64,000 nucleotides of DNA from Patescibacteria group bacterium (GTDB lineage Bacteria; Patescibacteriota; Minisyncoccia; Phycocordibacterales; JBBTRF01), in NCBI GenBank assembly GCA_038065315.1, contig JBBTRF010000002.1, forward strand, positions 12,021 through 76,020. Direction: 5' to 3'. Below, one piece after another: positions 6,220-55,144 of this stretch (positions are counted from its first letter, which is position 1; every line of letters starts with the position of its first letter). A program made the position numbers and the translations under genes. The notes beneath the pieces were generated by a model. The model made no database searches, had not been told where the DNA came from, and was given only the letters and a program-made list of their open reading frames with translations.

Positions 6220-8190
6220 ATGGATGAGAACAAAGTGACCTACTTTGCTCAGACTGACTCTCGCAACAAGAGGGTGCCTTTTGGTATTAAGCGCAAAGAT
6301 CGCACCCGACACATGTATGTTGTCGGCAAGACAGGTATGGGAAAATCGACGCTCCTCGAAAATATGGCAGTGCAGGATATCCAATCGGGCGAGGGTATCT
6401 GCTTCATCGATCCGCACGGCAAGACGGCCGATCTTCTGCTCGAGTATATTCCGGAATCGCGCAAAAAAGACGTAGTGTATTTTGCGCCGTTCGACCTCGA
6501 ACACCCGATCGCCTTCAATGTGATGGAAGATGTCGGTTTCGACAAGCGTCACTTGGTGTTGTCTGGCCTCATGAGCACCTTCAAGAAGATCTGGGAGGAT
6601 GCGTGGTCTGCGCGTATGGAATATATTTTGGGCAATACCATTTTGGCTTTGCTTGAATATCCGGGAGCGACGTTGCTCGGCGTGAACAGAATGTTTGCCG
6701 ACAAAGAGTATCGTCGTCGCGTGGTGGAAAATGTGAGTGACCCGGCCGTGAAGTCTTTCTGGAACGATGAATTCGCGAAGTACACGGAGAAATTTGCCGC
6801 GGAAGCGACGCCGGCGATCCAAAACAAGATCGGGCAGTTTACTGCCAACCCGCTGATCCGCAATATCATCGGTCAGCCGAACTCTTCTTTTGATCTGCGA
6901 AAGATGATGGATGAAAAGAAAATCTTCATCGTGAACCTATCGAAGGGACGAGTGGGCGAGTCGAATGCAAACCTGCTTGGCAGTATGTTGATCACCAAGA
7001 TCTATTTGGCGGCGATGTCGCGTGCCGACCTCACAGATAGCGATCTCAAAAAACATCCGAATTTCTATCTGTACGTGGATGAATTTCAGTCGTTTGCGAA
7101 CAAATCGTTTGCTGACATTCTTTCCGAGGCGCGAAAGTACAAATTGAACCTCACGATCGCTCACCAGTATATTGAACAGATGGAGGAAGAGGTGCGGGCC
7201 GCAGTGTTCGGCAACGTGGGTACGATGATCACCTTCCGTGTCGGTGCATATGATGCCGATGTGCTTGAAAAGGAATTCGCACCAAAGTTTTTGGCGGAAG
7301 ACCTTGTGAATCTTGGGTACATCCAGATCTACCTGAAATTGATGATCGACGGGATCAGTTCTCAGCCGTTTTCAGCCACCACATTGCCGCCCATCGCTCC
7401 GCCGGCGAAGAATATGAAGCAGGAGGTGATAGAGGCGTCTCGTGTGCTGTTCACTCGCCCGCGCGCCCAGGTGGAGGAGGAGATTAAACAATGGCATCAG
7501 CCGCTCAAGCCTGAGCCAAGGCCGGAGTCGAGACTGGAAGCGCGACCAAGTGAGGCGGTGAAGACGATTCTCACGCCGCGCAGCGAAACACGTACTGAAG
7601 TACGTCCTGAAACAAGACCTGCGTCGGTTCGTGCCGAGGTCCGTTCTGTCCCCGCCCCCGTGTCTGCTCCAGCGCCTGCCCCGGCTTCGGCGCCAGTTGC
7701 ACGAATCGCGCCCGTTGTTTCGACTCCGGTAGCTGTTGTGGCACCAGCCAAGCCGATTGGCTCCGCTACAACAATGGTCATCCCTGCACCGAAACCTGCA
7801 GCGATCCACCATGCCCCAGTGCCTTCGTCACCTTCATCGGCTTTTGCGGGACAGCTTCATCAGTCGCAAGCGAAACCAATCTCTCTGAGTCAACTTAAGT
7901 CAAAGACCACACCCGATTCTCAGACTGGTCCGCTCAAAGAGAACATCTCGGCTTTGCGCCAGGCGCTTGCGTCGGCGATGAAGAAGGATCCGAATGATAT
8001 TTCCAAGGCGGCACCGCGTCCTCTGGCGCCGCCGACTGTGGCCACATCTGTGGTGGCACCATCAGCTGCCCCCGTTCAGGTTGCGAAAAAAGAGCCGGTT
8101 GCTCCAATTGCTCCGAGTCATCGACCCGCACAGACCATACAAGAGATTCCGGAAAATGAACTCAGACGTCTGCTAGAAGTGGAGAAGTAG
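6220..8190 (+). CDS. P-loop ATPase of the VirD4/TraD coupling-protein / HerA-FtsK (DUF87, T4SS-DNA_transf) type with about 270-aa Pro/Ala-rich disordered C-terminal tail
   Basis: Walker A VVGKTGMGKST, Walker B LYVDEFQSF, TIAHQ sensor; C-terminal half low-complexity PAPVSAPAPAPASAP. Confidence 0.6.
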   Translation: MDENKVTYFAQTDSRNKRVPFGIKRKDRTRHMYVVGKTGMGKSTLLENMAVQDIQSGEGICFIDPHGKTADLLLEYIPESRKKDVVYFAPFDLEHPIAFNVMEDVGFDKRHLVLSGLMSTFKKIWEDAWSARMEYILGNTILALLEYPGATLLGVNRMFADKEYRRRVVENVSDPAVKSFWNDEFAKYTEKFAAEATPAIQNKIGQFTANPLIRNIIGQPNSSFDLRKMMDEKKIFIVNLSKGRVGESNANLLGSMLITKIYLAAMSRADLTDSDLKKHPNFYLYVDEFQSFANKSFADILSEARKYKLNLTIAHQYIEQMEEEVRAAVFGNVGTMITFRVGAYDADVLEKEFAPKFLAEDLVNLGYIQIYLKLMIDGISSQPFSATTLPPIAPPAKNMKQEVIEASRVLFTRPRAQVEEEIKQWHQPLKPEPRPESRLEARPSEAVKTILTPRSETRTEVRPETRPASVRAEVRSVPAPVSAPAPAPASAPVARIAPVVSTPVAVVAPAKPIGSATTMVIPAPKPAAIHHAPVPSSPSSAFAGQLHQSQAKPISLSQLKSKTTPDSQTGPLKENISALRQALASAMKKDPNDISKAAPRPLAPPTVATSVVAPSAAPVQVAKKEPVAPIAPSHRPAQTIQEIPENELRRLLEVEK

Positions 8191-8202
8191 AAGAATGTAA
8201 AA

Positions 8203-9681
8203 ATGAATATAAAGATATCGGTTGTTTTGGCACTCATCGTGTCAGCAGTTTTTCCTGTAGTCGCACAAGCAAAAATTGAATTTACCGAAGTGATGTATGA
8301 CCCAGCTGGGACGGATACTGGCAGGGAATGGATCGAGATTCACAATACCGGCAGTGCGCCGGTTGATGTGTCCGCGATGAAATTGTCCGAAGAAGGCGTA
8401 CAACATGTCTTGAAAGCGAGTGCGCTTGGCAGTGTGAGTACAGGTCTGCTCGATGCGGGGCAGTATGGGGTGATTGCGGATGATCCAGCGAAATTTTTGG
8501 TGGATTGGTCAACCTACTCCGGCCCGCTTTTTGACAGCAGTTTTTCGCTCAAAAATACCGGTGAGCCCATTGTGTTGCGCAGCAAGGATTTCGATGAAGA
8601 CAGTCTCGTGTTTGATCCGACAATCGGCGCAGCTGGTGACGGCAATTCGCTGCAGAGACAGATCTCTGCAGAAGGGGTAATGACGTGGGTCGTTGCTGTA
8701 CCGACGCCAGGTGGGGGTCTCAGTGTCGCTGATGTGAGTAGCACAAATGGTACAAGCGGCACAAGCAGCACGACTGATTCTCCACCGCCATCCGCCACTC
8801 CTGCTGCGGAAACCTCGAGTCCCGTTCAAGTATCGGCTGAAATGGCGACGCCTGTCGTCACGAAGAGTATTCCCGTGGAGCCACAAATCTTCTGCAAGAT
8901 CAGCGGAAAAAGCGAGGTGTTTGCTGGTGTCGAGACCGCTTTTTCCGCTCAGGGTCTCGGTTTGAAGAAACAGCCGTTGCAAAATGCTCGATACGTTTGG
9001 AATTTTGGCGATGGACAGACGAAAGAGGGACAGTACGTGTTGCACACGTATACGCAACCGGGGACGTACGATGTGTTTTTGGCTGCTGCGTCGGATGTGT
9101 ACTCCGCGAGTGATCGTTTGAAGGTGACGGTTCGCTCGCCCCAGCTCAGTGTCGCGCATTCGCAGGAGGTGTTGACGATCCTGAATCAAGACACTTCTTC
9201 GATTGATCTGTTTGGCCTGAAGATACACCAGGACGGCAGGAATGATTTCCTGTTTCCGGAGCATTCCACTTTGTCTGGTCGTGCGGAAATGAACATTGAC
9301 ACGAGTTTGTTTTCCATGGCGCATGCGGATGTGTCGCGAGCGAAAGAGCTGCCGATCACGTTGCAATATCTGAACGGTCGGGTGGTGGCGACTTCATCTG
9401 AACGAGAGATTTCGCCGACGGCCTCGGAGACGGTTGCAAAGGTCGTTCCGCCTAAAGAGACAAAAACGGTGACAAAGTCGACAAGGGCGGTGGCAAAGGT
9501 GGTAGCAAAACCGAAGGTGGCAGACAACGCTTCACAGACAATCGACCTCACGGCGAGCAGTAGTGAGGGGCAGATTATCGCGCTCGATACTACTGCGAAG
9601 GAGCGAAGGCTAAATTACTACGGTGCCACTATTGGCGTGCTAATACTGCTCGCTTTTGCCTGGTGGTACCTTTTGCGGTAA
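8203..9681 (+). CDS. secreted lamin-tail-domain (LTD) plus PKD-domain surface protein, C-terminal TM anchor
   Basis: signal peptide; EFTEVMYDPAGTDTGREWIEIHN LTD signature; WNFGDGQ...HTYTQPGTYDV PKD motif; C-terminal hydrophobic helix. Confidence 0.6.
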   Translation: MNIKISVVLALIVSAVFPVVAQAKIEFTEVMYDPAGTDTGREWIEIHNTGSAPVDVSAMKLSEEGVQHVLKASALGSVSTGLLDAGQYGVIADDPAKFLVDWSTYSGPLFDSSFSLKNTGEPIVLRSKDFDEDSLVFDPTIGAAGDGNSLQRQISAEGVMTWVVAVPTPGGGLSVADVSSTNGTSGTSSTTDSPPPSATPAAETSSPVQVSAEMATPVVTKSIPVEPQIFCKISGKSEVFAGVETAFSAQGLGLKKQPLQNARYVWNFGDGQTKEGQYVLHTYTQPGTYDVFLAAASDVYSASDRLKVTVRSPQLSVAHSQEVLTILNQDTSSIDLFGLKIHQDGRNDFLFPEHSTLSGRAEMNIDTSLFSMAHADVSRAKELPITLQYLNGRVVATSSEREISPTASETVAKVVPPKETKTVTKSTRAVAKVVAKPKVADNASQTIDLTASSSEGQIIALDTTAKERRLNYYGATIGVLILLAFAWWYLLR

Positions 9682-20372: not shown

Positions 20373-21264
20373 ACGAAGAGGCTTTTCTTTCTACAGGCTT
20401 TCCCTGTTCATCCAGTGCAATATAGTACAGATTCCGTTTTGGGAAAAGGGTGCGGTAGGTGAAAGAAAAGATTGGAGTGAAAAGTGGCGAGGATAATTTT
20501 GATCTCAACCAAAAGAACATCTTTACTTTTTTGTTGAGTGGGCCGGACTCTCGAGAAAGTGTTGCTTGTTCTTCTCTGTATTGTTTCATGTTGGTACTGA
20601 GTTGTCCGACGGAAGATCTGAATGAGCTTACTTCAGCATCGAGTGACCAAAGGGGGGTGACTTTTGCAAACTGTAGCCATAGAGAGTAGTCTCCAGCAAG
20701 CTTTAATGCAGGATCAATACCCCCAGCCTTATTCCACAACTCCTTACGCCAAAAGACGCTGTCTTGGTGGATGAAGTATGCGTTGCGGCCGTAGAACCCG
20801 CGAGCAATCCACTCTTGGTTGTATAGATAGCATCGTCCTCGTTCGGTAATGGCAGAGCGTTCGTCGATAAAAGACGTGATGCCTTTCAGCCAGAGAATGT
20901 CTGGGCGCGCAGAGAAGACAGCAGCGATTTTTTGGAAGGCGCCGGCGGCGTAGATGTCGTCGGCATTGATGTACGCGTAGACATCGCCGCCGGCGCGTGC
21001 GAACCCTTTGTTCACCGCATCATACATCCCAGCGTCTTTTTCCGATGCCCATTGCATCGTCACTTTTTTGCAGCGCGCCGGCACCAGACCCTCATCGACT
21101 TTTCGTTGCCATTCTTCCAGCAACGCGATAGTGCCGTCAGTGGATCCACCATCTTGCACGATATATTCGATTTCGAAATCTCCCGCTTGCGAAAGCACGC
21201 TCTCTATCGTTTCGGAGAGGAAGCGCTGACCGTTGTAGACGGGGGTGACGATGCTAAATTTCAT
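20362..21264 (-). CDS. glycosyltransferase family 2
   Basis: MKFSIVTPVYNGQRFL...IVQDGGSTDGT...YINADD motifs; start at 21264 (ORF opens at 21336). Confidence 0.75.
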   Translation of the reverse strand: MKFSIVTPVYNGQRFLSETIESVLSQAGDFEIEYIVQDGGSTDGTIALLEEWQRKVDEGLVPARCKKVTMQWASEKDAGMYDAVNKGFARAGGDVYAYINADDIYAAGAFQKIAAVFSARPDILWLKGITSFIDERSAITERGRCYLYNQEWIARGFYGRNAYFIHQDSVFWRKELWNKAGGIDPALKLAGDYSLWLQFAKVTPLWSLDAEVSSFRSSVGQLSTNMKQYREEQATLSRESGPLNKKVKMFFWLRSKLSSPLFTPIFSFTYRTLFPKRNLYYIALDEQGKPVERKASSYVI

Positions 21265-22079
21265 TTCTTCATCAGTCCGAGTGCGCGGAGGGCGCGCTTG
21301 ATGTAATACTTGGTGTAGCCGACGACGCGCGCCCAAGTCATCGGCGGCTTGTGCGTCTGCTGTGAGTCACTGAGAATCGTCCACGGCTTCTTCAGGATCG
21401 GCAATTTCCACTCGTCATTTTCTCGCGAGTAGCGATGCACGAACAATTTCTGTGTCGGATTTTCATACGGAAGGCAGTCGATGAGGAACATGAAAGACGA
21501 GTCAATCACGTGGATCTCTTTGGCTTTTTCGAACATCAGACAGTAGTCGATGATGTTTTCCGTAAATTGACGCTGCGGGCTGAACACTTCGAGGCCGGCG
21601 CCAATCTTGTCACGCTTGATAAGATATTGTCGAGGCAGGTCTTCGTGGATGAAGGCATAGTCGCCCTTCGGTGCCACTTTGTCGAACAACGCCTTTTCAC
21701 GTACAGGATCGCGCTCAATATGGAAGCTGTCCCATTTTTTCTCGAGCGGCACGCCGGCGAGGGAGTAGAATTGCTTTTCGAGCTGGCGACCGCCCCATTC
21801 GTCGAGGAATTCGAAACCAATCAGCCTCACTTCGTCGTAGTGGTCGGGACCGCTACCGTTGCCACTCTCGCTGGCGATGTATTGTCGAGCAAAGGCATCG
21901 TTACCCTGGATGATATTGAGGTTCTTGAGGTCACGATACATGAAGGCGACAGAAGGGTAGTTGTGGGGGTAGCAAAACAGCGCTACTTTGTCGTATTTTT
22001 GGCAATATTCACGCACGATGCCGTGACACATGAAGTGGTCTCCGAGCCCAAGATGGTGATACAAAATGACGCTAGACAT
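21261..22079 (-). CDS. hypothetical protein, possible glycosyltransferase-like (first gene of minus-strand sub-operon)
   Basis: 272 aa, ATGA overlap with GT2; no recognised family (LGLGDHFMC N-terminal motif). Confidence 0.4.
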   Translation of the reverse strand: MSSVILYHHLGLGDHFMCHGIVREYCQKYDKVALFCYPHNYPSVAFMYRDLKNLNIIQGNDAFARQYIASESGNGSGPDHYDEVRLIGFEFLDEWGGRQLEKQFYSLAGVPLEKKWDSFHIERDPVREKALFDKVAPKGDYAFIHEDLPRQYLIKRDKIGAGLEVFSPQRQFTENIIDYCLMFEKAKEIHVIDSSFMFLIDCLPYENPTQKLFVHRYSRENDEWKLPILKKPWTILSDSQQTHKPPMTWARVVGYTKYYIKRALRALGLMKK

Positions 22080-22151
22080 AGGGTGTTTGTTACGATAATA
22101 TGGCTCTATATCGGTCAGTATACCATATCTATTTTATCCTCATTAATTCCA

Positions 22152-23216
22152 ATGAAAGACGTCAAAAAAGCGATGAAAGCGGCCATACTCGAGACGATTG
22201 ACGCGCCGCTCGCTATCGGAAATGTCGAACTCACTGACCTCACTTCCGGCCAGGTATTGGTGAAGGTGCTGGTGAGTGGTATTTGCGGGGCGCAGCTGCA
22301 GGAAATCGCGGGGAATAAAGGCAATGCGAAATTCGTCCCGCATTTGTTGGGCCACGAAGGCTGCGGTATTGTCGAGGCACTTGGCCCAGATGTGACGCAT
22401 GTGAAGGTGGGCGACAAGGTGGTGATGCATTGGATGAAGGGTGACGGGATCGAAGCCGATTTTCCGACCTATATTTTGAATGGCAAAAAGATTCGCAGCG
22501 GCAAGGTGACCACTTTCAGTGAGTACTCGATTGTGTCGGAAAATCGGCTTACTGCTGTACCGCACGAGACGCCGAATGACCTCTGTGCGCTGCTGGGCTG
22601 CGGACTGTCGACTGCACTTGGTGTGATGGAGAACGAAGCGCAGGTGAAGCCGGGTGAGAGTGTGATGATTGTGGGCGCCGGCGGCTTGGGTCTCAATCTT
22701 TTGAACGCGGCGGTAATCGCCGGCGCCAAGCCCATCATTCTCGTCGACGTTCACGAAAGCAAGCGCAAGATGGCGGAGTCTCTCGGTGCACACCTATTCA
22801 TCAATTCAAAGGAGAAAGGTATCAAGGAAGAATTGACCGAAAAACTGAATCTGAAAGACGTGGATGTGATCGTCGACACTTCCGGCAACAAGCACGCAGT
22901 CGAAGCGACCCTTCCGCTGCTCGGCGGAAACGGTCGCTATATTTTCGTCGGTCAGCCGAAACCGGGCGAAACCATTGAGCTCAAAAATGCACACCACATG
23001 TTCGACGGAAAAGGGAAGACTATCAAGGCGACTCAGGGTGGAAAATTCAATCCGACAAAAGACATCCCGCGTTATTTGCAAATGCACAAGACCGGCGCAT
23101 TGAAAATCCACCATATCATTACGCATCGCATCAGCCTCGACAAGGTCAATGAAGCGATCGACATGGTGCGAGCGGGCCAGGCTGGACGAATTATTATTGA
23201 TATTTGTCCAAACTAA
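22152..23216 (+). CDS. zinc-dependent medium-chain alcohol dehydrogenase/reductase
   Basis: GHEGCGIVEALG zinc motif, GAGGLGLN Rossmann motif; start MKDVKK at 22152 (long ORF from 21435 is antisense read-through). Confidence 0.75.
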   Translation: MKDVKKAMKAAILETIDAPLAIGNVELTDLTSGQVLVKVLVSGICGAQLQEIAGNKGNAKFVPHLLGHEGCGIVEALGPDVTHVKVGDKVVMHWMKGDGIEADFPTYILNGKKIRSGKVTTFSEYSIVSENRLTAVPHETPNDLCALLGCGLSTALGVMENEAQVKPGESVMIVGAGGLGLNLLNAAVIAGAKPIILVDVHESKRKMAESLGAHLFINSKEKGIKEELTEKLNLKDVDVIVDTSGNKHAVEATLPLLGGNGRYIFVGQPKPGETIELKNAHHMFDGKGKTIKATQGGKFNPTKDIPRYLQMHKTGALKIHHIITHRISLDKVNEAIDMVRAGQAGRIIIDICPN

Positions 23217-23242
23217 CCCGCGTGACGCACACGAACACTAAA

Positions 23243-24205
23243 ATGTCTACATCCCTCCTCGACGCTTACAAAAAAATGCAGTTGATCCGCATCACTGAGC
23301 AAGAGATCGCGAACTTTTATTTGGCCAACAAGGTGATGAGCTTCGTGCATTTCTATGTCGGACAGGAAGCGGTCGCAACAGGCGTCTGCGCGGCGCTGGC
23401 GAGTGGCGACAAAGTGATGGGTAACCATCGTTCACACGGCCACTATTTGGCGAAGGGCGGCGACTTGAAACGCATGGTCTGCGAGTTGCTCGGCAAGGCG
23501 CACGGCTCGTCGAAAGGGAAGGGCGGTTCGATGCACATGATCGACAAGTCGGTGAACTTTGTCGGCTCCACCCCGATTCTCGGTAGCGTGGTACCACTCG
23601 CGTGCGGTGCGGCTTTTGAACAAAAATATAACAAGAAAAACGACCTCACCGTGTCGTTTGTCGGCGACGGTGCTTCCGAAGAGGGTGTGGTATACGAGAC
23701 GATCAATCTCGCCGCGCTTTTTAAACTCCCATATCTCATTGTGGTAGAGAATAATCTCTATTCGGTCAACTCGAAAATAAAAGACCGGCGCTCTGAAGGC
23801 TACAATGTCGAAAAGATCGTCACCGGCCTCGGCGCGCAGTATATGAAGGCTGACGGTAACGATCTCGAAGATGTGCTCGCAAAGGCAACCGCCGCCGTCG
23901 CGAAGATCCGCGCTGGCGGCGGACCAATGGTGCTCGAGTGCATCACTTATCGTCACATGGCCCACAGCGCGCCGCTCTTTGATGACGCTCAAGGTTATCG
24001 CGAAGAAGATCCGCTCGAAAAGCGCCTCGAGCGCGACCCAATCAAGCGCTTGAAGCAAACCTTGCTCACTGCGGGTACTTCCGAGGAGCAACTCGCCAAG
24101 ATCGAAAAGGAGACTCGAGATACCGTGCTCGCTGCAATCGCCTTCGCGAAGGATGCGCCATTTCCGGCGAAGGAGACTTTATATACTGACGTTTACGCGA
24201 AATAA
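23243..24205 (+). CDS. TPP-dependent dehydrogenase E1 component alpha subunit (PDH/acetoin-DH E1 alpha-like)
   Basis: YVGQEAVATGV, GNHRSHGHYLAKGGD, GKGGSMHM TPP-binding motifs. Confidence 0.75.
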   Translation: MSTSLLDAYKKMQLIRITEQEIANFYLANKVMSFVHFYVGQEAVATGVCAALASGDKVMGNHRSHGHYLAKGGDLKRMVCELLGKAHGSSKGKGGSMHMIDKSVNFVGSTPILGSVVPLACGAAFEQKYNKKNDLTVSFVGDGASEEGVVYETINLAALFKLPYLIVVENNLYSVNSKIKDRRSEGYNVEKIVTGLGAQYMKADGNDLEDVLAKATAAVAKIRAGGGPMVLECITYRHMAHSAPLFDDAQGYREEDPLEKRLERDPIKRLKQTLLTAGTSEEQLAKIEKETRDTVLAAIAFAKDAPFPAKETLYTDVYAK

Positions 24206-24208
24206 CTT

Positions 24209-25282
24209 TTGAATACTTGTATGCCCGAACGAATCATCAAATGCAACGACGCGATCAGGGAGGCCACCGACCAGATGATGGCCGCTGACCCAAGTGTGTT
24301 CGTGATCGGTCTCGGTGTCTCATACAAGAATGGCGCGGACGGGACCACTGCAGGGTTGAAAGCAAAGTATCCGGACCGCATCTTCGATGTTCCGGTCTCC
24401 GAAGCGGGATTCACTGGTATGGCAGTGGGTGCGGCGATCAGCGGCTTGCGCCCCGTCATTCATCATGGTCGCATCGAATTTGCACTGCTCGCCTCCGACT
24501 CGATCTTCACCCAAGCCGCAAAGTGGAACTATATGTTTGGCGGCGACAATCCGGTGCCGGCGGTCTTCCGCATTGCCATCGGCCGCGCCTGGGGCAATGG
24601 TCCGCAGCACACGCTCTCGACGTATTCTATGTTCGGCAATGTTCCCGGCTTGAAAGTGGTCATTCCATCGACGCCATACATGGCGAAGGGTCTACTGGTC
24701 TCTGCTTTGCGCGATCGCAGCCCGGTCGTCTTTCTCGAAACCCGCTATTCATACGGCATGAAGCAGCATGTGCCCGAAGAGCTATACGCCGAACCGCTCG
24801 ACAAGGCGAAAGTGTTTCGAACAGGGAAGAGTGTCACGGTCGTCGCGTATGGTGACGGTTTTGTTGGCGCGCTACAAGCCTGCGAATTGCTCAATGCGAG
24901 CGGCAACGGCACAGACGTTGCAGATATCGACCTGATCGATCTCGTGAGCATCAATCCTGTCGACCACGAGACCATCACTCGTTCGGTGCAGAAGACCGGA
25001 CATTTGTTGTGCATCGATACGACGATCGATTCATTTAGTGTTGGCTCGGAGATCATCGCAAAGGTGGCGCAGAACGGCGCGATCAGACTGAAAAAGGCGC
25101 CGGTCTCGCTCGCGTGTCCGAATGTTGCCTGTCCAACCTCGACTGCACTCACTGAAGGCTACTATCCGACCAAAGTGGACATCGCGAACGCTATTTTAGC
25201 CCTGCAAGGGAAGCCAGCGATCAAGTACGATCTTTCTTTTGACGATTTTCATACTCACGCCGCATTTGTGATCCAGGGTTAG
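24209..25282 (+). CDS. TPP-dependent dehydrogenase E1 component beta subunit (transketolase-like)
   Basis: 357 aa; transketolase pyrimidine-binding and C-terminal domains; follows alpha subunit after 3 nt. Confidence 0.75.
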   Translation: MNTCMPERIIKCNDAIREATDQMMAADPSVFVIGLGVSYKNGADGTTAGLKAKYPDRIFDVPVSEAGFTGMAVGAAISGLRPVIHHGRIEFALLASDSIFTQAAKWNYMFGGDNPVPAVFRIAIGRAWGNGPQHTLSTYSMFGNVPGLKVVIPSTPYMAKGLLVSALRDRSPVVFLETRYSYGMKQHVPEELYAEPLDKAKVFRTGKSVTVVAYGDGFVGALQACELLNASGNGTDVADIDLIDLVSINPVDHETITRSVQKTGHLLCIDTTIDSFSVGSEIIAKVAQNGAIRLKKAPVSLACPNVACPTSTALTEGYYPTKVDIANAILALQGKPAIKYDLSFDDFHTHAAFVIQG

Positions 25283-25343
25283 ATTGACGGAAAAGCTTCG
25301 AAAATAACGTCAAAAAGCCTTATAATTGGCCGCAAAATAGACA

Positions 25344-25372
25344 TTGACAGTAGCATTAAAATATGCTACAAT
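25344..25372 (+). promoter_or_regulatory. consensus sigma70 promoter (TTGACA-17-TACAAT) for EEP gene
   Basis: TTGACA 25344-25349, 17-nt spacer, TACAAT 25367-25372; AGGAGG RBS at 25474-25479, GTG start 25485. Confidence 0.55.
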
Positions 25373-25484
25373 TGAGACCGGTCAGGAAATGCCCTGTTTG
25401 GCATGTTCCGAATTTGAAAAAACAGCAGAAAACGCAATAAACCAGGCCCTAAACAGGCCGCAAACCTCTTGAAAGGAGGCCGCA

Positions 25485-26270
25485 GTGCAACGTCAACAGT
25501 TCAAGCTCATCACGCTCAACGTTGGTCGCGGACTTTCCGGCATCGACCGGATCATTACCTTCCTACGGGAGCAGCAGGCCGACGTGCTTTGCTTGCAAGA
25601 CATCAGCGCCGACCATATCGCCTCGTTCCCCGGAGTGTTCGGTCCGTCGATGCACTTCGTGCCGATGTGCCGCCACCACTTCAGGGGACTGGGCCATGTT
25701 CCGGTCGGCGTCGGCATTTTCTCCCGGTTTCCGCTCGCCAGCACCTCGGCGCATGCTTACGTCGGCAACATTCAGCCGGTCTTGGACATCGACGGCGTCA
25801 CCTACGGCGAAAATGGCGCTGCCGCTCCGACGGATCTGGATCTGGTCCGCAAGACCGAATCCCGCGTCGCCGTGTTCGCCAACGTCCAGTTACCCGACAA
25901 CGTTCAAGTCCGGGTTGGCACTACGCACGGGGTTTGGACTCCGGGCGGAAAAGCGGACGAGCATCAACGCAAGGCTACGCGCCTGCTGCGCAACTGCATG
26001 AATGAGCAACTGATTGACGGTGGCCTGATAGCCGGCGATTTCAACGCTGCCACTGGCGGCGAGATCTACGGCATTATTGCCGGCTCGGAGCACTATCAGA
26101 GCGTTATGCCGGGCAGCATCACCAACACCGTTGACTGGGAAGTTCGCGGCAAGAAAGGCCCGGAACTTGTCGTGGATCACGTCTTCGCCGCGCATGTCGC
26201 CGTTCCGGAAGTGGCTGCACACTTCGGTGTGAGTGATCATGCCGCGCTCTCGGCCATTGTCCGGGTGTAG
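25485..26270 (+). CDS. endonuclease/exonuclease/phosphatase (EEP) family protein
   Basis: 261 aa; EEP-like motifs LCLQD, GTTH, SDHAAL; GTG start with strong SD; markedly GC-richer than neighbours. Confidence 0.6.
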   Translation: MQRQQFKLITLNVGRGLSGIDRIITFLREQQADVLCLQDISADHIASFPGVFGPSMHFVPMCRHHFRGLGHVPVGVGIFSRFPLASTSAHAYVGNIQPVLDIDGVTYGENGAAAPTDLDLVRKTESRVAVFANVQLPDNVQVRVGTTHGVWTPGGKADEHQRKATRLLRNCMNEQLIDGGLIAGDFNAATGGEIYGIIAGSEHYQSVMPGSITNTVDWEVRGKKGPELVVDHVFAAHVAVPEVAAHFGVSDHAALSAIVRV

Positions 26271-26354
26271 CGGATTACTCGAAATAACAAGTGATACTTC
26301 GCAACTTCCTCGCGCCATCCGTGGCCGAGGGAGTTTTTTCTTGTAGACATTTTG

Positions 26355-28361
26355 CTACTTCCGCCACAGATACAGAGCAATCGGGAAGCAGTAACTATTT
26401 TTGAATGTTTCGGCGACTTGGAAATTAAAATCGCGATCAGCGCCGCGGCCCATGAAAGATGGCCAGACCCGGTTTTTGAGCTTTCTGAATTGGACCTTTT
26501 CTATCACTTCGCGCTTGAACATTGGACTGTTGCCCGCGCCTGGGTAGGGCGCCAGGTTGCCAAAGAAGAGCTTGTTCAGTACGCGGAGACGTTTGTAGTG
26601 AAAATGAATCGCGCTATTTACATACGTCGAGACTTTTGCAACCAACCCTTTTGCTTTCTGTGACAACGTGTAAATCTCTTTAGGTCCAAGGATTTTTCCG
26701 TCAATTTTGTATTCCGCTTTCGTCCCCAGGAGCTCTTCTCTGAACGGGACACACTCAGTAGTGATGTGCATCGCGCCATGCTTGGTGAGCAGATCGTGTT
26801 GAACCTCCAGTCGGTTCAATAGGGAGGCATCATCGCCGTCCTGGAAGGTGATGAGTTCGCCACGAGCCTTGGTGAAGCCAAAGTTTCGCGCAGCATAGCC
26901 TGCGTTGGTGTTGCGTTTCAGTATCGGATCGATGCGCTCGGTGTCGTTGCCGGGTAGTGAGTAATAAGCGACTCGCGGATCTTCTTTCGCGACGTCCTCG
27001 ACAATCTTTTTGGTGTTGTCGGCGCTGTTGTCGTCCACAACGATGACTTCAAGATGTGTGTATGTTTGTTGGAGGATTGAATCAATCGCTGTTTTGATCG
27101 TCTCGGCGTTGTTGTGTGCAGGGATGATGACAGAGATGAGCGGATTTGTTGCGGGGCGTAGTATGTCGTCGATAAAATGTCCGTAAGCGGAAGAAAAATG
27201 CTCTTTCGTATGGTGTTCCCGAGCATACATCCAGGTGTTGTGAGCCAATGTGCTGAGCTGCTCCGGTGCAGTCTGTGCGATTTTTTTCGCCTGTGCGCGG
27301 ATCGATTCAATGGTCGGCTCCTCCAAAATGATTGCCGGGGCTTTCTCAGCAAGACCTGTTTGTCTGGTGACAATCGGGAAGACTCCAGCATGCATTGCCT
27401 GTATCACGGCACCGGAAGTACCCTCAGAGGCTGAAGGGTAAATGAGGGTTGCGCATTTATTAGCGATGGCAATGAATGTCGTGTCGCCGACGGTCATTGT
27501 GCCAGCCTTGTCCATCTTTGGTCGTGGATAGCAAGTGATATTCGGTAAGGCGAGTTCGGTTGCATAGACTGCTTGGAACGTTGTTTCAGCGGCGGTGGGG
27601 CCGATGATATGTAAATGCAGTTCCGGCATGGTGGAGAAAGCTTCTATTACCAAATCGAGTCCCTTTAGGATAGCCCCACCGCCGCTGAAGAAGAGAAAGT
27701 GCTTTCGCGCTTCGGCAAAATCTTTTCCGCCCGCCTCGCCAATCTCGGAAGCTTCAAATGTCTGTGCGACGGATATAGGAATGTGGCGAATCGGTTTATT
27801 GAATCGAGCAAATGTTGCGTAAACAGTGTCGTTGCCGAAGCCTTCAAGGAAGTCTGCATAAGCAGGATTTTCAGCACCGGTCTCGACGCGCCGAGCTGGC
27901 AGAATGATACCGCGTCGCTGTTTGAGTTCGGCGAGACGCTTCGCTTCAGCGGCGTTTTGAAAACCGCTCTCCGACGAAGTGATGTGCATTACTTTTTTGC
28001 ATGAAGCAGGAAGGAGGGAGGTGCCTGCGAGGCCGGCAGTACACCATCGCTCCAGATTTTGCCGCACATCGACGACGGCATCATATTGTTTGCGCGGAAC
28101 AAAAGACGTATTTGAGGCATTGATCACGTCGACATCATATCCTCGAACTGAAAACAGCCGAGCAATTTCAGAGCATTCCCAATAGTTGGTGTGTGGGTCG
28201 GTGAATCGCTGCCAAGGGAGAAGGGTGAAGGGGCCGGTGAGATATGAGAGGAGAACTCGACCTTTTTTTGTCGACTGGCCACCTGTCTTTTCGCGTGTCG
28301 CCGGCACATGCACTACTCCATGTAGCTTGTTTGAGACTTTGTTTTTGAGAGTGCCGATCAT
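26355..28361 (-). CDS. bifunctional glycosyltransferase (N-terminal GT-B/GT4-like domain + C-terminal GT2 domain)
   Basis: N-half GTSGAVIQAMHAGVFPIVT; C-half LISVIIPAHNNAETI...VIVVDDNSADNT...FQDGDD; start MIGTLK at 28361 (ORF opens 28556 with R/S-rich junk). Confidence 0.65.
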   Translation of the reverse strand: MIGTLKNKVSNKLHGVVHVPATREKTGGQSTKKGRVLLSYLTGPFTLLPWQRFTDPHTNYWECSEIARLFSVRGYDVDVINASNTSFVPRKQYDAVVDVRQNLERWCTAGLAGTSLLPASCKKVMHITSSESGFQNAAEAKRLAELKQRRGIILPARRVETGAENPAYADFLEGFGNDTVYATFARFNKPIRHIPISVAQTFEASEIGEAGGKDFAEARKHFLFFSGGGAILKGLDLVIEAFSTMPELHLHIIGPTAAETTFQAVYATELALPNITCYPRPKMDKAGTMTVGDTTFIAIANKCATLIYPSASEGTSGAVIQAMHAGVFPIVTRQTGLAEKAPAIILEEPTIESIRAQAKKIAQTAPEQLSTLAHNTWMYAREHHTKEHFSSAYGHFIDDILRPATNPLISVIIPAHNNAETIKTAIDSILQQTYTHLEVIVVDDNSADNTKKIVEDVAKEDPRVAYYSLPGNDTERIDPILKRNTNAGYAARNFGFTKARGELITFQDGDDASLLNRLEVQHDLLTKHGAMHITTECVPFREELLGTKAEYKIDGKILGPKEIYTLSQKAKGLVAKVSTYVNSAIHFHYKRLRVLNKLFFGNLAPYPGAGNSPMFKREVIEKVQFRKLKNRVWPSFMGRGADRDFNFQVAETFKNSYCFPIALYLWRK

Positions 28362-28365
28362 GCGA

Positions 28366-29133
28366 TTACTTCGCCGCCTTCTTGATGAACAGCGCGAGGT
28401 CGAGCGTATCCGCCTGCTCAGTTTTTGTGATCGTGAATGGTCCTTCGAATGGTCCGTTGACGCAATTCCACTCCACTTCGCCGTGCTTTCGGGTGATCGC
28501 ATCCAATTCAGCAAATGTCCACTCGCGCAAATGCCAATAATTCTTCGGCGTGCCATCGGCCTTGGTGTACTCTGGTCGCTTGTTCGGTGTAGTCAAGAAG
28601 ACGCCGCGCTTCGAGACACGCAACACTTCGTCGAGGAAGCGATGGTAGTCCTCCACGTGCTCCAACACTTCCACACAGGTGATCATGTCAAAATAATTGT
28701 CAGGATAGTCGAGTTTATAGCCATCGTACAAAGAGAGTTTTTTCAACTTTGGATGCTTGCCGGCAAGTACGCGTTGGCAATAGTCGTAGGCTTTCTTATC
28801 GACATCGGCGCCATACACCTCAGTCGCTTTGTTCCCCAAAAGCACCAGTCCATAGCCGGTGCCAAATCCGACATCGAGCACACGGTCGCCCTCCTTCACA
28901 TAATTATTGAGGGCACGAAAATACACCTCGATCTGGCACGGTGGAATGATTCCTTCGATTCCCGAGACAGCCGAGTATTCCTTCGGATCGGTCTTTTTCG
29001 ACGTGTTAAAAACCAGGCCAACCGAACTCGCCGTTTTCACCGGCATGATCCGGAATCCGAGCGTGCTGTCTAGACAATTATTGACTGCTTTTAGGGTTTT
29101 TTTGATCATATAAATAGGAGCCAATTTTATCAC
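28366..29133 (-). CDS. class I SAM-dependent methyltransferase
   Basis: VLDVGFGTGYG motif I, ITCVEVLEHV, SKRGVFLTTPN. Confidence 0.7.
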   Translation of the reverse strand: MIKLAPIYMIKKTLKAVNNCLDSTLGFRIMPVKTASSVGLVFNTSKKTDPKEYSAVSGIEGIIPPCQIEVYFRALNNYVKEGDRVLDVGFGTGYGLVLLGNKATEVYGADVDKKAYDYCQRVLAGKHPKLKKLSLYDGYKLDYPDNYFDMITCVEVLEHVEDYHRFLDEVLRVSKRGVFLTTPNKRPEYTKADGTPKNYWHLREWTFAELDAITRKHGEVEWNCVNGPFEGPFTITKTEQADTLDLALFIKKAAK

Positions 29134-30140
29134 GCCTTTTTTCGGGTCACAAGGCGGTAGAGTTTTTTCAGTAATTCGCTCTTCACCGCGATCGCGATGA
29201 CTGTTTTCTTCAGGCTAAATGGCTCTGGACGAAAACTCCGTTCGTAAAAGGCTCGGTCGTATTCCATCCCGGCCGCTACCGCGCCTTCGGCAGTTGCCGG
29301 ATGAACGATAGCTCCATCCGCGTAGAGATCATGTGTCGCTAGGTGCTGGTTGCTGCCGCCCGAATGCGTCCCTTCTGAGCCGATATTGGATACCAGATTT
29401 TTGCGAGGGATGATACAAAAGCCGCCACTCCTCAGACAGGCATACAGCCACTGCACGTCCCAGGTGTTTGTCTTTCCGGATACGATGTCGTCAAAGAGAC
29501 GTTCCATATGATTTCTCATATATTTCTGATCTTCCGGATATAGCTCGTTCAGCATCTTTATGTCTCCCGAGTCGCTCTTGTTTCTTGTTGCTCTTTCCCA
29601 ATCCTTCATCTGCACATCATACTGCTGCCATGCTCGGCGCCATGTCGCCCAGCCCCAGATCGGAAAGTATTTTGAAAATGCGTAGTCGGTCTCGATGTGC
29701 ACATCTGGCAGAAAATTGTCGCCAGAGATCATCATCACTCGCTCATCCGATCGATACCGCTTGAGCATCTCTCCTGCGAAACGAAAGAAAGACGGGTGGG
29801 GTAGACAGTCGTCTTCGAGGATAATCCCTTCTTCGACGTGTTCAAAAAACCAATTCAATCCCGAGGAGATACGCTCTTTCAGGCCAAGGTTTTTTTCGGC
29901 GTAATTGCGACGGACTTCGCATGGCCAGTCAATCTCCGTATCTGCAACGATCGCTCTTGTTTCTTCGCAGAGGGCTGACTCGGCCGGGGTGCGTGGACCA
30001 TCTGCAATAATGAAGAGCTGTCGAGGCTTTGCCTGGCGGATTTGCTCGAATACCTTGCGAGTGTATTCCGGGCGATTGAAGATGAGAAAGGCAATCGGCA
30101 AGGTCGATAGGTTTGGCGTGTTGATATTAGTCTGCGACAT
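29130..30140 (-). CDS. GT-A-fold nucleotide-diphospho-sugar transferase-like protein (HlpA-like)
   Basis: FIIADGP...ILEDDCL...WGWATW pattern; start MSQTNI at 30140 avoids 83-nt overlap with asnB. Confidence 0.35.
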   Translation of the reverse strand: MSQTNINTPNLSTLPIAFLIFNRPEYTRKVFEQIRQAKPRQLFIIADGPRTPAESALCEETRAIVADTEIDWPCEVRRNYAEKNLGLKERISSGLNWFFEHVEEGIILEDDCLPHPSFFRFAGEMLKRYRSDERVMMISGDNFLPDVHIETDYAFSKYFPIWGWATWRRAWQQYDVQMKDWERATRNKSDSGDIKMLNELYPEDQKYMRNHMERLFDDIVSGKTNTWDVQWLYACLRSGGFCIIPRKNLVSNIGSEGTHSGGSNQHLATHDLYADGAIVHPATAEGAVAAGMEYDRAFYERSFRPEPFSLKKTVIAIAVKSELLKKLYRLVTRKKA

Positions 30141-34123: not shown

Positions 34124-34444
34124 TTACCACTTATTAATCTTCTTCACGACCTTCTTCTTCGCGCTCAAATACGTGCGGACGGCTTCACGCTCGAGTTCTG
34201 GAGAGACGAGGCGAAGGATTTCTTTGCCGAGAATACGGTACTGGCCACCCACTTTGTTGGCACGCAACAGGCCGCGTTTTAGGAGGCGCTTGATCGTGCT
34301 CTCGCTGATGCGCAGGATGTCCTGCGTTTCGTTGGTGGTATAGATGCCGAGCGGCGCAACTTCCGTAATACCGCTTGCGACAGAGGTGTTTTGGGTCAGT
34401 CGATTCATGAAGTACATAGTAGCAGAAAAGTCAAAAGGTGTCAA
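34124..34444 (-). CDS. helix-turn-helix (excisionase/MerR-like) DNA-binding protein
   Basis: 106 aa; YTTNETQDILRISESTIKRLLKRGLL HTH, Lys-rich C-terminal tail. Confidence 0.5.
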   Translation of the reverse strand: MTPFDFSATMYFMNRLTQNTSVASGITEVAPLGIYTTNETQDILRISESTIKRLLKRGLLRANKVGGQYRILGKEILRLVSPELEREAVRTYLSAKKKVVKKINKW

Positions 34445-38313: not shown

Positions 38314-38697
38314 GTGAAAGTCAATCAGTGGACATTGGGCATCGCGGCTGCAGGCGTCATCGCCTTCGCCACGCTCTGCTCGATCGCAGGCAAGTCTGAT
38401 CCGCCGGCACAAGTTGTCATCGGTCAGTCATCGCAAACGGAAATCATCGCGCAGTCCGACACCCTGGCCGAGGACATCTCGCCGCCACGCGTCGCTGTTG
38501 CCATCCAAAACGACGCCGTTGGCACCATCGCCAAGACCGACTCGAGCGCGTTCACTGAGAAGGAGGTGGTTGTCTTCGGACCGAAACTTGCCGGTGGTGT
38601 CGTCATTTCCAGCTTCGGCACCGCCTACTACGCCACTGTCGCGCACCTACATCCGCGCGTCTTGGCGATCCCGACTGCCGCCGCCGTGGTCGTCTAG
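38314..38697 (+). CDS. small secreted/lipoprotein-like hypothetical protein
   Basis: 127 aa, GTG start, signal-peptide-like N-terminus; Ala/Val/Thr-rich; weak coding evidence. Confidence 0.25.
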   Translation: MKVNQWTLGIAAAGVIAFATLCSIAGKSDPPAQVVIGQSSQTEIIAQSDTLAEDISPPRVAVAIQNDAVGTIAKTDSSAFTEKEVVVFGPKLAGGVVISSFGTAYYATVAHLHPRVLAIPTAAAVVV

Positions 38698-44448: not shown

Positions 44449-44454
44449 TTTTAT
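44285..44454 (+). ncRNA. candidate about 170-nt small RNA composed of two 54-nt structured direct repeats, ending in intrinsic terminator
   Basis: repeat 1 44285-44338, repeat 2 44395-44448 (53/54 identical); each unit folds AGCCG-uaaauc-CGGCU and CCUCCCA-GCGA-UGGGAGG (GNRA loop); repeat-2 hairpin is perfect and followed by UUUCGCUUUUAU. Confidence 0.4.
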
Positions 44455-44849
44455 AGGCTTCTACGCACTTTCTCTAAGAGTTGTTGAAAAGGGGCCGGTT
44501 CCATTCTCCACATTATTCTCGAAAGTCTTCGAGCACTTATCGTTCTCAGTTGAGAAAAAATAATGCCGTAGTAAATTCCGTCATGGGTGTGTCCATATAT
44601 GTACTGCCCATCTCTCTCCTTGCTTGTTGTCGGAGCGATAAGGAGCTTGTCTCTATTGTACTTCTTCAACACAATTACCGGTCTTTCAAATTTTTCATGT
44701 TTTCCATCTTCTTCTCTCCCGATATTCACCCCTAGACTAGCCCACCACACCTCGCCCTCCTTGAACGGTGTAAAAATTTCAGTTGCGTCCAACGTTTTCT
44801 TTATCGTATTCCACCTGTCGAAATCTTTTTTGTATCCTAGGTCGTCCAT
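44451..44849 (-). CDS. PemK/MazF-family endoribonuclease toxin (orphan; no adjacent protein antitoxin)
   Basis: 132 aa; GEVWWASLGVN...ERPVIVLKKY...LLIAPTTSK...IFSQLRTISARRL matches MazF/PemK core motifs. Confidence 0.5.
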   Translation of the reverse strand: MDDLGYKKDFDRWNTIKKTLDATEIFTPFKEGEVWWASLGVNIGREEDGKHEKFERPVIVLKKYNRDKLLIAPTTSKERDGQYIYGHTHDGIYYGIIFSQLRTISARRLSRIMWRMEPAPFQQLLEKVRRSL

Positions 44850-46863: not shown

Positions 46864-47103
46864 GTGTGGAGTGCAAATGAACCGATACATACTGAGGGTA
46901 TGCGCCTTGTCGGGGTGATGGATTACTCTGCATCAACACCCTAACGCTGGTAGTATTATAGCACGCAATATGGCAAAAAGTCAAGGTCTGGGAAATGGCT
47001 CAGATGAAGGTTATTTTGCGCCAAAGAGAAAGAAAAAAGCGCGCAACCGGAGTTGCGCGCTTTGCGTATGTTTGGCCGTTTCCGACCTTTTGAGAAGCCG
47101 TAT

Positions 47104-48135
47104 TCACACCCGAAACGTATCGGCCTCGCGGGCGAAGCAGAGCTTGGTGCCGGGGAAAGCCTCGGCAAACTCCGCCTGCATTTCGGCTTCGAACTTGCGG
47201 AGGTCCGCATCAGGCCGGCTCGGATCGTGATGGCCGACGAGGATCGTGCCCGGCACGACTTCGCATTGGCTGAGTGCGGCGCGGAGCATGCCTGGTGTCG
47301 AGTGACCCCAACCTTTGCGGCTCATGGCCGGTCCACCGGCGATGCCTGCTTGGCCAGCATGCTCTTCGTCGCGATACTGCACATCGACATAGAGAATGGC
47401 AGCACCGGAGACAAACTTCGCGTATTCAGCACGATGAGTTTCGTCGGACAACTCCTCGTCGGTGGTGACGACCACGTCTCCGTGAGGGAGAGCGATGCGG
47501 AAGCCGGCGGCTTGGCCGGGATGATTCAGCGGCAAGGTCTTCACCGAGACATCGCCGACCTGCAGCGAGCTGCCAAGGGCGAATTCCTGGATCGAGTGCG
47601 TGATGCCGAAGGTCGCGGGCGAGACGGGCCAGGTGTCGGGCGAGAAGTCGCCAGCAAGCACTTCACGGAAGGAGCGGCCTGGCAGGATCGGCGTGTGGAT
47701 CGAGCGCACGTAGCCGTTCTTGAACAGCATGGTGTTGCTCTGGACTCCCGCACGATGATCCATGTGGAAGTGTGTCTGGAGACCGTTCACGCCGGTGACC
47801 TGGCGCTCGCGGAAGAACTCCGCGACGCGGGGGACGCCGGTGCCGTTATCGATGAAGATCCCCATGCCACCTGGCAGGACGATCCCGAGGGCCGTCGTGT
47901 TGGTGCCGAATTCGGTCCGAAACGAGTGCGGTCCGACCGGAGCTTCGTCCGCGATCGGGCCGGAGCTCATTGGGCCTATCGGGCCGCCATTGATTTTCAC
48001 AGCCGGTGCAGGGCTAGTGCCGCCGCAGCCGCCGATGAAGAAGAACGCGGTTTCCGATTGCGTGAGCGCCGGGAAGGGCGGGGCCGATACGCTGACGGTG
48101 GGGGCGAGACTGTTTACTGAGGCATTGGTGTTCAT
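47104..48135 (-). CDS. secreted MBL-fold metallo-hydrolase
   Basis: HFHMDH (HxHxDH) motif, downstream His/Asp ligands, signal-peptide/lipobox-like FFFIGGCGG; GC-rich; start MNTNAS at 48135 with AAGGA RBS. Confidence 0.6.
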   Translation of the reverse strand: MNTNASVNSLAPTVSVSAPPFPALTQSETAFFFIGGCGGTSPAPAVKINGGPIGPMSSGPIADEAPVGPHSFRTEFGTNTTALGIVLPGGMGIFIDNGTGVPRVAEFFRERQVTGVNGLQTHFHMDHRAGVQSNTMLFKNGYVRSIHTPILPGRSFREVLAGDFSPDTWPVSPATFGITHSIQEFALGSSLQVGDVSVKTLPLNHPGQAAGFRIALPHGDVVVTTDEELSDETHRAEYAKFVSGAAILYVDVQYRDEEHAGQAGIAGGPAMSRKGWGHSTPGMLRAALSQCEVVPGTILVGHHDPSRPDADLRKFEAEMQAEFAEAFPGTKLCFAREADTFRV

Positions 48136-55045: not shown

Positions 55046-55144
55046 GGCTAAAATAGGGCTCTAAATATGGTTATACACAGCTGGCTTGCTATACTGGGTA
55101 TATTCGTGTATTATTGGGTATAGTTGGTATATAACCAATCACGT

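Follow-up and report, generated by a model that had tools for sequence, protein, structure and literature searches.

An EEP-fold hydrolase gene with its own conserved promoter, leader and Shine-Dalgarno sequence beside a predicted sugar-building cassette in Patescibacteria

Introduction

The EEP superfamily (Pfam PF03372, Exo_endo_phos) includes exodeoxyribonuclease III (Xth), secreted toxins and nucleases such as sphingomyelinase C, CdtB and DNase I-like proteins, and a sugar phosphatase, the mannosyl-6-phosphatase Bt3783 of Bacteroides thetaiotaomicron (4c1r). Here, we analyze a gene for an EEP protein in a 64-kb stretch of a Paceibacteria-type Patescibacteria genome (contig JBBTRF010000002.1; this whole stretch is referred to as the window, and positions are counted from its first nucleotide). 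A first-pass annotation had described the gene as GC-rich, probably horizontally acquired and possibly a secreted nuclease or effector. The comparison with related loci points instead to a native gene with transcription and translation signals of its own, which encodes an EEP hydrolase tied to a neighboring sugar module.

The nearest solved structures are those of uncharacterized bacterial proteins (4RUW from Beutenbergia cavernae; 3G6S, BVU_0621; 3MPR; 3L1W). They are 15-20% identical to the window protein, and none of the four has a known substrate. Unlike these solved relatives, the window family, wherever its members carry a taxon name, is found in Patescibacteria only, and it is linked to a module for glycan precursors. 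The acidic metal ligand after the second β-strand of EEP enzymes is usually Glu (LQE), as in the aligned ANGEL2 sequence, whereas nearly all members of the window family have Asp (LQD). Xth is of similar size (~260 residues), and its first β-strand and LQD/E motif align with those of the window protein, but the latter scores 15.7 bits against 182.55 with TIGR00195 and 15.2 against 99.05 with TIGR00633, and so is not an Xth ortholog. Bt3783, a periplasmic enzyme of a yeast-mannan utilization locus, was matched by fold (E 1.1e-10) at 11% identity; the window protein, in contrast, has no visible signal peptide and is encoded in a biosynthetic locus. It likewise differs from the secreted EEP toxins and nucleases in showing no export signal.

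The ADP-heptose pathway comprises a kinase, the phosphatase GmhB, a nucleotidyltransferase and a GT9 transferase. GmhB (D-glycero-D-manno-heptose 1,7-bisphosphate 7-phosphatase, of the HAD-IIIA type) is proposed here, purely from gene context, as the functional equivalent of the window protein: both would supply a phosphatase step among genes for an RfaE-type kinase, a nucleotidyltransferase and a GT9-type transferase. The folds differ, as the window protein is of the EEP type and shows neither HAD-IIIA fold nor motifs; HAD enzymes form an aspartyl-phosphate intermediate, and EEP enzymes use a metal-activated water.

For the regulatory setting, the closest parallels are Shine-Dalgarno (SD)-bearing exceptions in SD-poor genomes, such as rpsU in Flavobacteriia. 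In both cases, a single gene keeps a strong SD among SD-less genes, a pattern that suggests gene-specific translational control, but the window gene encodes a hydrolase and not a ribosomal protein.

Results

The EEP gene and the signals predicted around it are:

25344-25372, forward strand: sigma-70-type promoter (-35 TTGACA at 25344-25349, 17-nt spacer, extended -10 TGcTACAAT at 25364-25372)
25350-25369, no strand assigned: perfect 7-bp inverted repeat GTAGCAT-N6-ATGCTAC, which takes up the promoter spacer and extends into the -10 element
25380-25484, forward strand: 5' leader of ~105 nt, its start site inferred from the position of the -10
25472-25479, forward strand: SD sequence AAAGGAGG, 5 nt before the GTG
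25485-26270, forward strand: EEP-fold phosphoesterase gene, 261 residues, GTG start, the only long frame that fits the homologs
26303-26340, forward strand: intrinsic terminator, hairpin at 26303-26335 followed by a U-tract to ~26340

Taken in order, a strong sigma-70 promoter, a leader of ~105 nt ending in a perfect SD, the GTG, the EEP frame and an intrinsic terminator would make up a native, vertically inherited transcription unit of a single gene. An in-frame TGA at 25470-25472 precludes an upstream extension of the frame.

The surroundings of EEP orthologs were taken from 12 further distinct loci (L007, L008, L010-L014 and L018-L022); a scan of species-representative genomes returned only three loci, two of them already in this set. 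The contig of L007 ends at an E1-beta fragment, and that of L022 ends after E1-beta and a trace of E1-alpha. In the window, the genes preceding EEP are:

21261-22079, reverse strand: protein of GT9-like (heptosyltransferase-like) fold, 272 residues, without a Pfam or NCBIfam match
22152-23216, forward strand: zinc-dependent alcohol dehydrogenase (Zn-ADH), assigned by Pfam/NCBIfam
23243-24205, forward strand: thiamine pyrophosphate (TPP)-dependent E1-alpha, pyruvate dehydrogenase E1-like, assigned by Pfam/NCBIfam
24221-25282, forward strand: TPP-dependent E1-beta, assigned by Pfam/NCBIfam

In 11 of the 12 further loci (L007, L008, L010, L011, L012, L013, L018, L019, L020, L021 and L022), EEP adjoins the ADH/E1-alpha/E1-beta cassette, at EEP protein identities of 37-79%. 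EEP lies downstream of E1-beta on the same strand in nine of these (L007, L008, L010, L011, L012, L013, L018, L021 and L022), with Zn-ADH and E1-alpha upstream wherever the contig extends that far and a gap between E1-beta and EEP of 125-200 nt in eight of the nine. L013 has a small opposite-strand open reading frame (ORF) between the two genes. In L019 (45% identity) EEP is divergent from ADH. L020 (37-38% identity) has it at the end of the cassette, where EEP and a kinase gene converge. That the genes remain adjacent in these two loci despite rearrangement speaks for a functional link beyond the mere inheritance of gene order.

These data bear directly on the proposed horizontal origin, in which a foreign, GC-richer gene with its own signals was recently dropped between two glycan operons. 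Recent acquisition would account for GC values in the upper tail of the window, for a private promoter and terminator, and for a gene that is alone in having an SD and a long leader. However, a syntenic ortholog in relatives, which the first-pass annotation had itself named as the observation that would speak against transfer, is found in 11 of 12 loci and down to 37% protein identity. An insertion between two glycan operons is not supported either. The upstream neighbor is the TPP-dependent E1-beta gene and not a glycosyltransferase gene, and EEP is a resident beside the cassette.

Divergence at synonymous sites (dS) was compared for the window genes against L008, L010 and L011, with L007 as the closest relative. 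The dS of EEP is 1.17-1.45 against the first three (0.75 against L007), and that of ADH, E1-alpha and E1-beta is 0.90-1.69. As EEP matches its neighbors in this respect, it is as old at the site as they are. Every taxon-named homolog from a word-indexed search (n=29) and a profile search (n=66) belongs to Patescibacteria, Paceibacterota or Kaiserbacteria, so the taxonomy of hits, a check proposed with the transfer claim, also speaks against it. A paralog (P0329, MEK7645353.1; 260 residues, 28% identical), which has the canonical LQE motif, is encoded outside the window on the same 781-kb contig. There are no tRNAs in the 64-kb window, no repeats bracketing the EEP gene, and no mobility genes among those called within ~10 kb on either side of it. 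PADLOC and PHROGs gave no matches, hence no pointer to a defense system or a phage origin. Recent acquisition is accordingly judged most improbable, and it is very likely that the gene is a native, separately signaled EEP hydrolase gene tied to the module.

The composition that had suggested a foreign origin is real but modest. Across the 51 ORFs compared (EEP and 50 others), EEP has a GC content of 0.608 against 0.523 +/- 0.038 (z = 2.25, rank 3/51) and a third-position GC content (GC3) of 0.733 against 0.609 +/- 0.066 (z = 1.89, rank 2/51), so the reported excess over its neighbors stands. It recurs, relative to their own loci, in six of the seven further orthologs tested (L007, L008 and L010-L013, by +0.04 to +0.10), and is reversed in the seventh (L014, 0.591 against 0.648). 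Its recurrence indicates that it is intrinsic to the gene. Moreover, with dS above 1 and synonymous sites near saturation, a compositional relic could not have survived and the excess must be maintained; the comparison of ORFs confirms the excess, which does not mark a recent arrival. At two-fold sites C/(C+T) is 0.74, A makes up 0.04 of four-fold sites against 0.10-0.28 elsewhere, Lys is reduced (2.3% against 7.2%), and Gly, Val and His are raised. The raised GC and GC3 stem from amino-acid composition and a marked preference for C-ending codons, kept up in the orthologs, and are not a foreign relic.

Other genes of the window depart from the average in both directions. Two putative genes without Pfam matches, 38314-38697 and 47053-48120 (both forward), have GC contents of 0.617 and 0.632, with a first-position GC content of 0.75 in the second. 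Clearly low values are found for an EamA transporter gene (49-969, reverse; 0.408), a PemK/MazF-like toxin gene (44451-44849, reverse; 0.426) and a Fic-domain protein gene (55124-56215, forward; 0.466). Judged by composition alone, these three are better candidates for recent acquisition than EEP.

The reported consensus promoter (TTGACA-17-TACAAT) is borne out. Its -10 hexamer lies at 25367-25372, preceded by TG at 25364-25365, and with 11 of 12 consensus matches it is the best of 14 promoter-like sites between 20 and 32 kb. Three sites with at least 11/12 matches occur in the whole window, against 0.43 expected from Markov simulations. The promoter is nearly invariant in L007, L008, L010, L011, L018 and L022, and TTGACx-16/17-TAnnnT promoters are recognizable before the distant orthologs L012, L013, L017, L019, L020 and L021. 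A scan of JGI metagenomes with the promoter pattern gave a single match, likewise located between E1-beta and EEP. The spacer, a part of promoters that usually varies freely, is conserved in close relatives. With up to two mismatches allowed, the inverted repeat that fills it has no second copy in the window. This palindrome may be an operator, and is regarded as a candidate for one.

At the other end of the unit, the terminator hairpin (dG -21.1 kcal/mol, z -4.4) is kept in L007, L008, L010 and L011 through changes on both arms, which read ACUUCCUCG/CGAGGGAGU in the window and CCCCUUUG/CGAAGGGG in L011. It places the end of the unit at ~26340, beyond the 26330 given in the earlier description. 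With both promoter and terminator conserved in orthologs, the suggestion that the gene is independently transcribed is upheld.

Conserved blocks of the leader span 25380-25420 and 25445-25484; a GGCC/GGCC hairpin and CCTCTT-GAA-AGGAGG lie in the second of the two. Over aligned bases, the intergenic region 25283-25484 is 77-85% identical to those of L007, L008, L010, L011 and L018. For comparison, 48-67% of the synonymous sites of the flanking genes differ, and identity in the EEP coding DNA is 66-77%. The promoter palindrome and ~105-nt leader evolve about three times slower than synonymous sites. By contrast with the conserved region between E1-beta and EEP, the downstream spacer has diverged outside the terminator stem. 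The leader motifs were found solely upstream of EEP in the window and all fetched loci. The control region is more conserved than the protein that it serves.

No known RNA family was recognized in the leader: Rfam gave no match in the whole window at gathering thresholds, and a permissive scan of 25250-25560 (E <= 10) returned a noise match only (E 8.6). The folding energy of the leader is not better than that of shuffled sequences (z +0.5). RNAalifold, applied to seven leader sequences, predicted 20 pairs, most of them invariant and none with compensatory changes. An ATG-initiated frame of 27 codons was considered as a leader peptide and rejected, being broken by one-base indels in the first conserved block of relatives. 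The SD could pair with CCTCTT at 25465-25470 (dG -5.7 kcal/mol; z -0.4, not significant), and a hairpin that sequesters the SD may form, a possibility that is kept in mind.

The strong SD and GTG start reported for the gene are confirmed, and the statement that its neighbors lack such features proved to be an understatement. A search for GGAG or GAGG at -20 to -4 of each start codon retrieved EEP alone among the 51 genes of the window (0/50 of the others). A GGAGG-like motif lies just 5' of the start in every ortholog, even where the leaders are otherwise unrelated, which argues for a true SD function. In L013 only AAAGGGGA is left of the motif, and this scores nil in the GGAG/GAGG scan. The EEP ortholog is the sole gene with a GGAG/GAGG motif in L008 (1/16), L010 (1/17), L011 (1/9) and L019 (1/15); one or two other such genes occur in L012 and L020 and several in L014, and none was scored in L013.

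In the window, a -10-like TANNNT hexamer ends 4-13 nt before the start codon in 18 of 51 genes, against 3.8 +/- 1.9 at random positions. Examples are the genes at 6220, 38838, 48300, 50348, 51981 and 53075. The genome thus looks largely leaderless and SD-less. Our literature search on SD and leaderless usage in Patescibacteria found one relevant study, a survey that detected the anti-SD motif in just 48% of the 16S rRNA genes of Parcubacteria (PMC9297842). In such a setting, a private promoter, leader and SD would give EEP an expression separate from that of its SD-less neighbors, probably higher or separately regulated.

An SD-led gene among leaderless genes could also be a relic of ancient acquisition, by an ancestor of the Paceibacteria clade from an SD-using lineage, with leader and SD then kept by selection. 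EEP is consistently exceptional against its leaderless, SD-less neighbors in every lineage examined, as such an event would predict. The tight family is also small: when 1.84 billion cluster representatives were searched exhaustively by HMM, ~15 clusters (50% identity) scored above 220 bits. These are, however, enclosed by a broader set of small EEP proteins (346 clusters at E <= 1e-30) that includes the paralog from the same contig and whose named members are Patescibacteria or carry generic labels. Furthermore, at a dS above 1 no compositional relic can persist, and no donor lineage is identifiable. Ancient acquisition is therefore considered unlikely, though less so than a recent event.

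Membership of the EEP family, as first annotated, is well founded. The protein matches PF03372 with 54.3 bits (cut-off 24.5) over residues 9-252, covering model positions 1-225 of 225, and its confident AlphaFold2 model (pLDDT 93) has the α/β-sandwich fold of solved EEP enzymes. An alignment of 29 family sequences keeps N12, D39, E125, H148, D185, N187, D231, S250, D251 and H252, of which the catalytic set N12, D39, D185/N187, D231 and D251/H252 is invariant or at least 90% conserved. Nearly all members have the Asp of LQD, rather than Glu, as acidic metal ligand, and the active site is predicted to be complete with this replacement. No signal peptide or N-terminal hydrophobic segment was visible on inspection of the 29 homologs (no predictor was run), nor was a membrane segment visible in the alignment and model. 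The N-terminus MQRQQFKLITLN leads directly into strand 1 (residues 5-12), which speaks against the suggested secreted nuclease or effector. The protein is predicted to be a cytoplasmic, metal-dependent phosphoesterase and is best placed as an uncharacterized, Patescibacteria-restricted member of a known superfamily.

In contrast to its control region, the protein changes quickly. EEP is 57-59% identical to its orthologs in L008, L010 and L011, where ADH, E1-alpha and E1-beta are 89-95% identical. Its nonsynonymous divergence (dN) is 0.31-0.34 against 0.03-0.06 for the module neighbors, and its dN/dS is 0.22-0.29 against 0.02-0.06. At equal dS, EEP thus changes about seven-fold faster than its partner enzymes, and selection on it appears to be purifying but relaxed, or partly diversifying. 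Three points are new here: the fast change of the EEP protein, a promoter and leader more conserved than synonymous sites, and a lone SD gene among 51.

A sequence search of the PDB gave nothing below E 0.06, and the only NCBIfam matches were those to Xth, below threshold. In a fold search, the protein was equidistant from nucleases, lipid phosphodiesterases and phosphatases (10-21% identity, no subfamily prominent). ADH, E1-alpha and E1-beta are 89-95% identical to their counterparts in L008, L010, L011 and L018, as is the 272-residue GT9-like protein, except in L008 (54%). The latter is encoded in all module loci with enough upstream sequence, and its family numbers more than 455 proteins of Parcubacteria. 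Two of its homologs in other Parcubacteria (P0156 and P0172) are fused to a GmhB-like HAD-IIIA phosphatase (E 6e-45); a search for such a HAD phosphatase in the window and in all EEP-bearing loci gave none. RfaE domain-I-like kinases are encoded in L008, L019 and L020. L019 also has a nucleotidyltransferase of the RfaE domain-II type that scores above cut-off.

EEP is probably a conserved accessory of a sugar-building module (GT9-like protein, Zn-ADH and E1-alpha/E1-beta) within a surface-glycan locus, where it would hydrolyze the phosphate ester of a pathway intermediate, in a step like that of GmhB in ADP-heptose synthesis. Because of the GT9-like partner, the RfaE-type genes in relatives, the GmhB fusions, the absence of the HAD enzyme from EEP loci and the precedent of Bt3783 as an EEP enzyme acting on a sugar phosphate, our best guess by guilt by association is a phosphatase or phosphodiesterase step in a heptose-like (or branched-sugar) nucleotide-sugar pathway. 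The narrower assignment as a sugar-phosphate phosphatase is tentative, and we would not expect it to hold in most outcomes. A literature search on EEP enzymes in heptose or capsule pathways found nothing relevant.

An alternative is a nucleic-acid enzyme, such as a 3'-repair diesterase or apurinic/apyrimidinic endonuclease, a salvage nuclease or an RNA 2',3'-cyclic phosphatase, with its place beside the sugar module incidental or inherited. The Xth equivalog models failed, however, and EEP is still beside the cassette after rearrangement in L019 and L020. The family is also very narrow, and we would expect a core repair enzyme to be well conserved, rather than to change about seven-fold faster than its neighbors. 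Such an activity is unlikely.

It is also conceivable that the protein acts on finished or lipid-linked glycan, as a sphingomyelinase- or phospholipase C-like phosphodiesterase that trims sugar-1-phosphate or alditol-phosphate or releases the polyprenyl-phosphate carrier. Lipid phosphodiesterases are among its fold matches. Here, a membrane-binding segment or signal peptide would be anticipated, and neither is visible; the tightest linkage is moreover to the soluble ADH/E1 enzymes, whereas transferases and exporter vary between loci. We consider this activity distinctly doubtful.

Several features of the surrounding locus were noted. The ADH/E1 cassette (22152-25282, forward) lies inside the glycan locus and is 89-95% conserved, against 70-88% for the surrounding transferases, and no E2 or E3 gene was found within ~10 kb on either side of it. 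In some antibiotic pathways, E1 pairs add two-carbon branches to sugars. A public gene call of 593 residues (21435-23216, forward) runs antisense through the 272-residue gene before reaching the ADH domain. As ADH orthologs have 354 residues, the true ADH start is most likely 22152, and the call seems over-extended. An HTH_17 gene (34124-34417, reverse), conserved in L008 and L010, heads a wzm/wzt/asnB/transferase operon behind a 10/12 promoter with TG (34416-34444), and is a candidate regulator of the locus. Adjoining the glycan locus, the region 6220-9681 (forward) encodes a TraG/VirD4-like coupling ATPase (TrwB_AAD_bind, T4SS-DNA_transf) and then a protein with lamin-tail and PKD domains.

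A protein identical to the window EEP is encoded on assemblies from Hainich groundwater (H52), which differ downstream of the gene. A GT2/GT1 fusion of 668 residues (26355-28361 in the window) is split into 424 and 231 residues in L002 (9674-11679), and a gene for 336 residues (29130-30140) encodes 201 in L003 (6185-6790). These differences could be population-level frameshifts or assembly errors.

Discussion

The explanation favored here joins three parts: a native gene, signals that set its expression apart, and a cytoplasmic phosphoesterase that serves a sugar module. Taken as a whole, it is given a probability of roughly 0.6. Several observations weigh against it. With regard to the signals, no terminator was found between E1-beta and the EEP promoter, so that read-through from upstream is possible. 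High expression of EEP is suggested by sequence signals alone, and the gene is more strongly codon-biased than the enolase, iPGM and SecA genes of the window, which leaves an expression-linked bias as a plausible reading only. It is not obvious, furthermore, why a pathway enzyme would need an SD, a long leader and a strong promoter of its own. With regard to the module, the L014 ortholog has no cassette and lies outside any glycan context. Kinase and nucleotidyltransferase genes were searched for and are absent from the 64-kb window, leaving EEP without local partners of this kind; among the module loci, a kinase is encoded in only three and a nucleotidyltransferase in only one. The fold search, finally, favors no substrate class, with nucleases, lipid phosphodiesterases and phosphatases alike.

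It is tempting to go further and link the control region to the pathway. The promoter palindrome and leader may together be a new cis-regulatory element that switches on SD translation of this one gene in a lineage whose other genes start without leader or SD, and EEP a non-orthologous replacement of GmhB. Such an element could consist of an operator and a translational control RNA built on the CCUCUU/AGGAGG pairing. The pathway served may lead to a heptose-like or branched sugar, drawing on the TPP-dependent E1 pair, the Zn-ADH and the compact GT9-like transferase. This linked proposal is speculative and rather improbable as a whole.

For the annotation of this genome, the analysis removes a false call of horizontal transfer: in this resident gene, the raised GC, the consensus promoter and the SD are not signs of foreign origin but have been conserved under selection. 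EEP is an ordinary kind of gene, for a hydrolase of a known superfamily, in a regulatory setting that is not ordinary. We know of almost no regulation described in Patescibacteria, and a control region that is more conserved than the protein is a candidate regulatory element. The lone SD-led gene also offers a natural way to test whether Parcubacteria retain a functional anti-SD. The neighborhood, in turn, defines a conserved, unannotated sugar module consisting of a GT9-like protein without a Pfam family, Zn-ADH, E1-alpha/E1-beta and the EEP hydrolase. As it is found in surface-glycan loci of bacteria thought to be episymbiotic, this module may build a lineage-specific cell-surface sugar.

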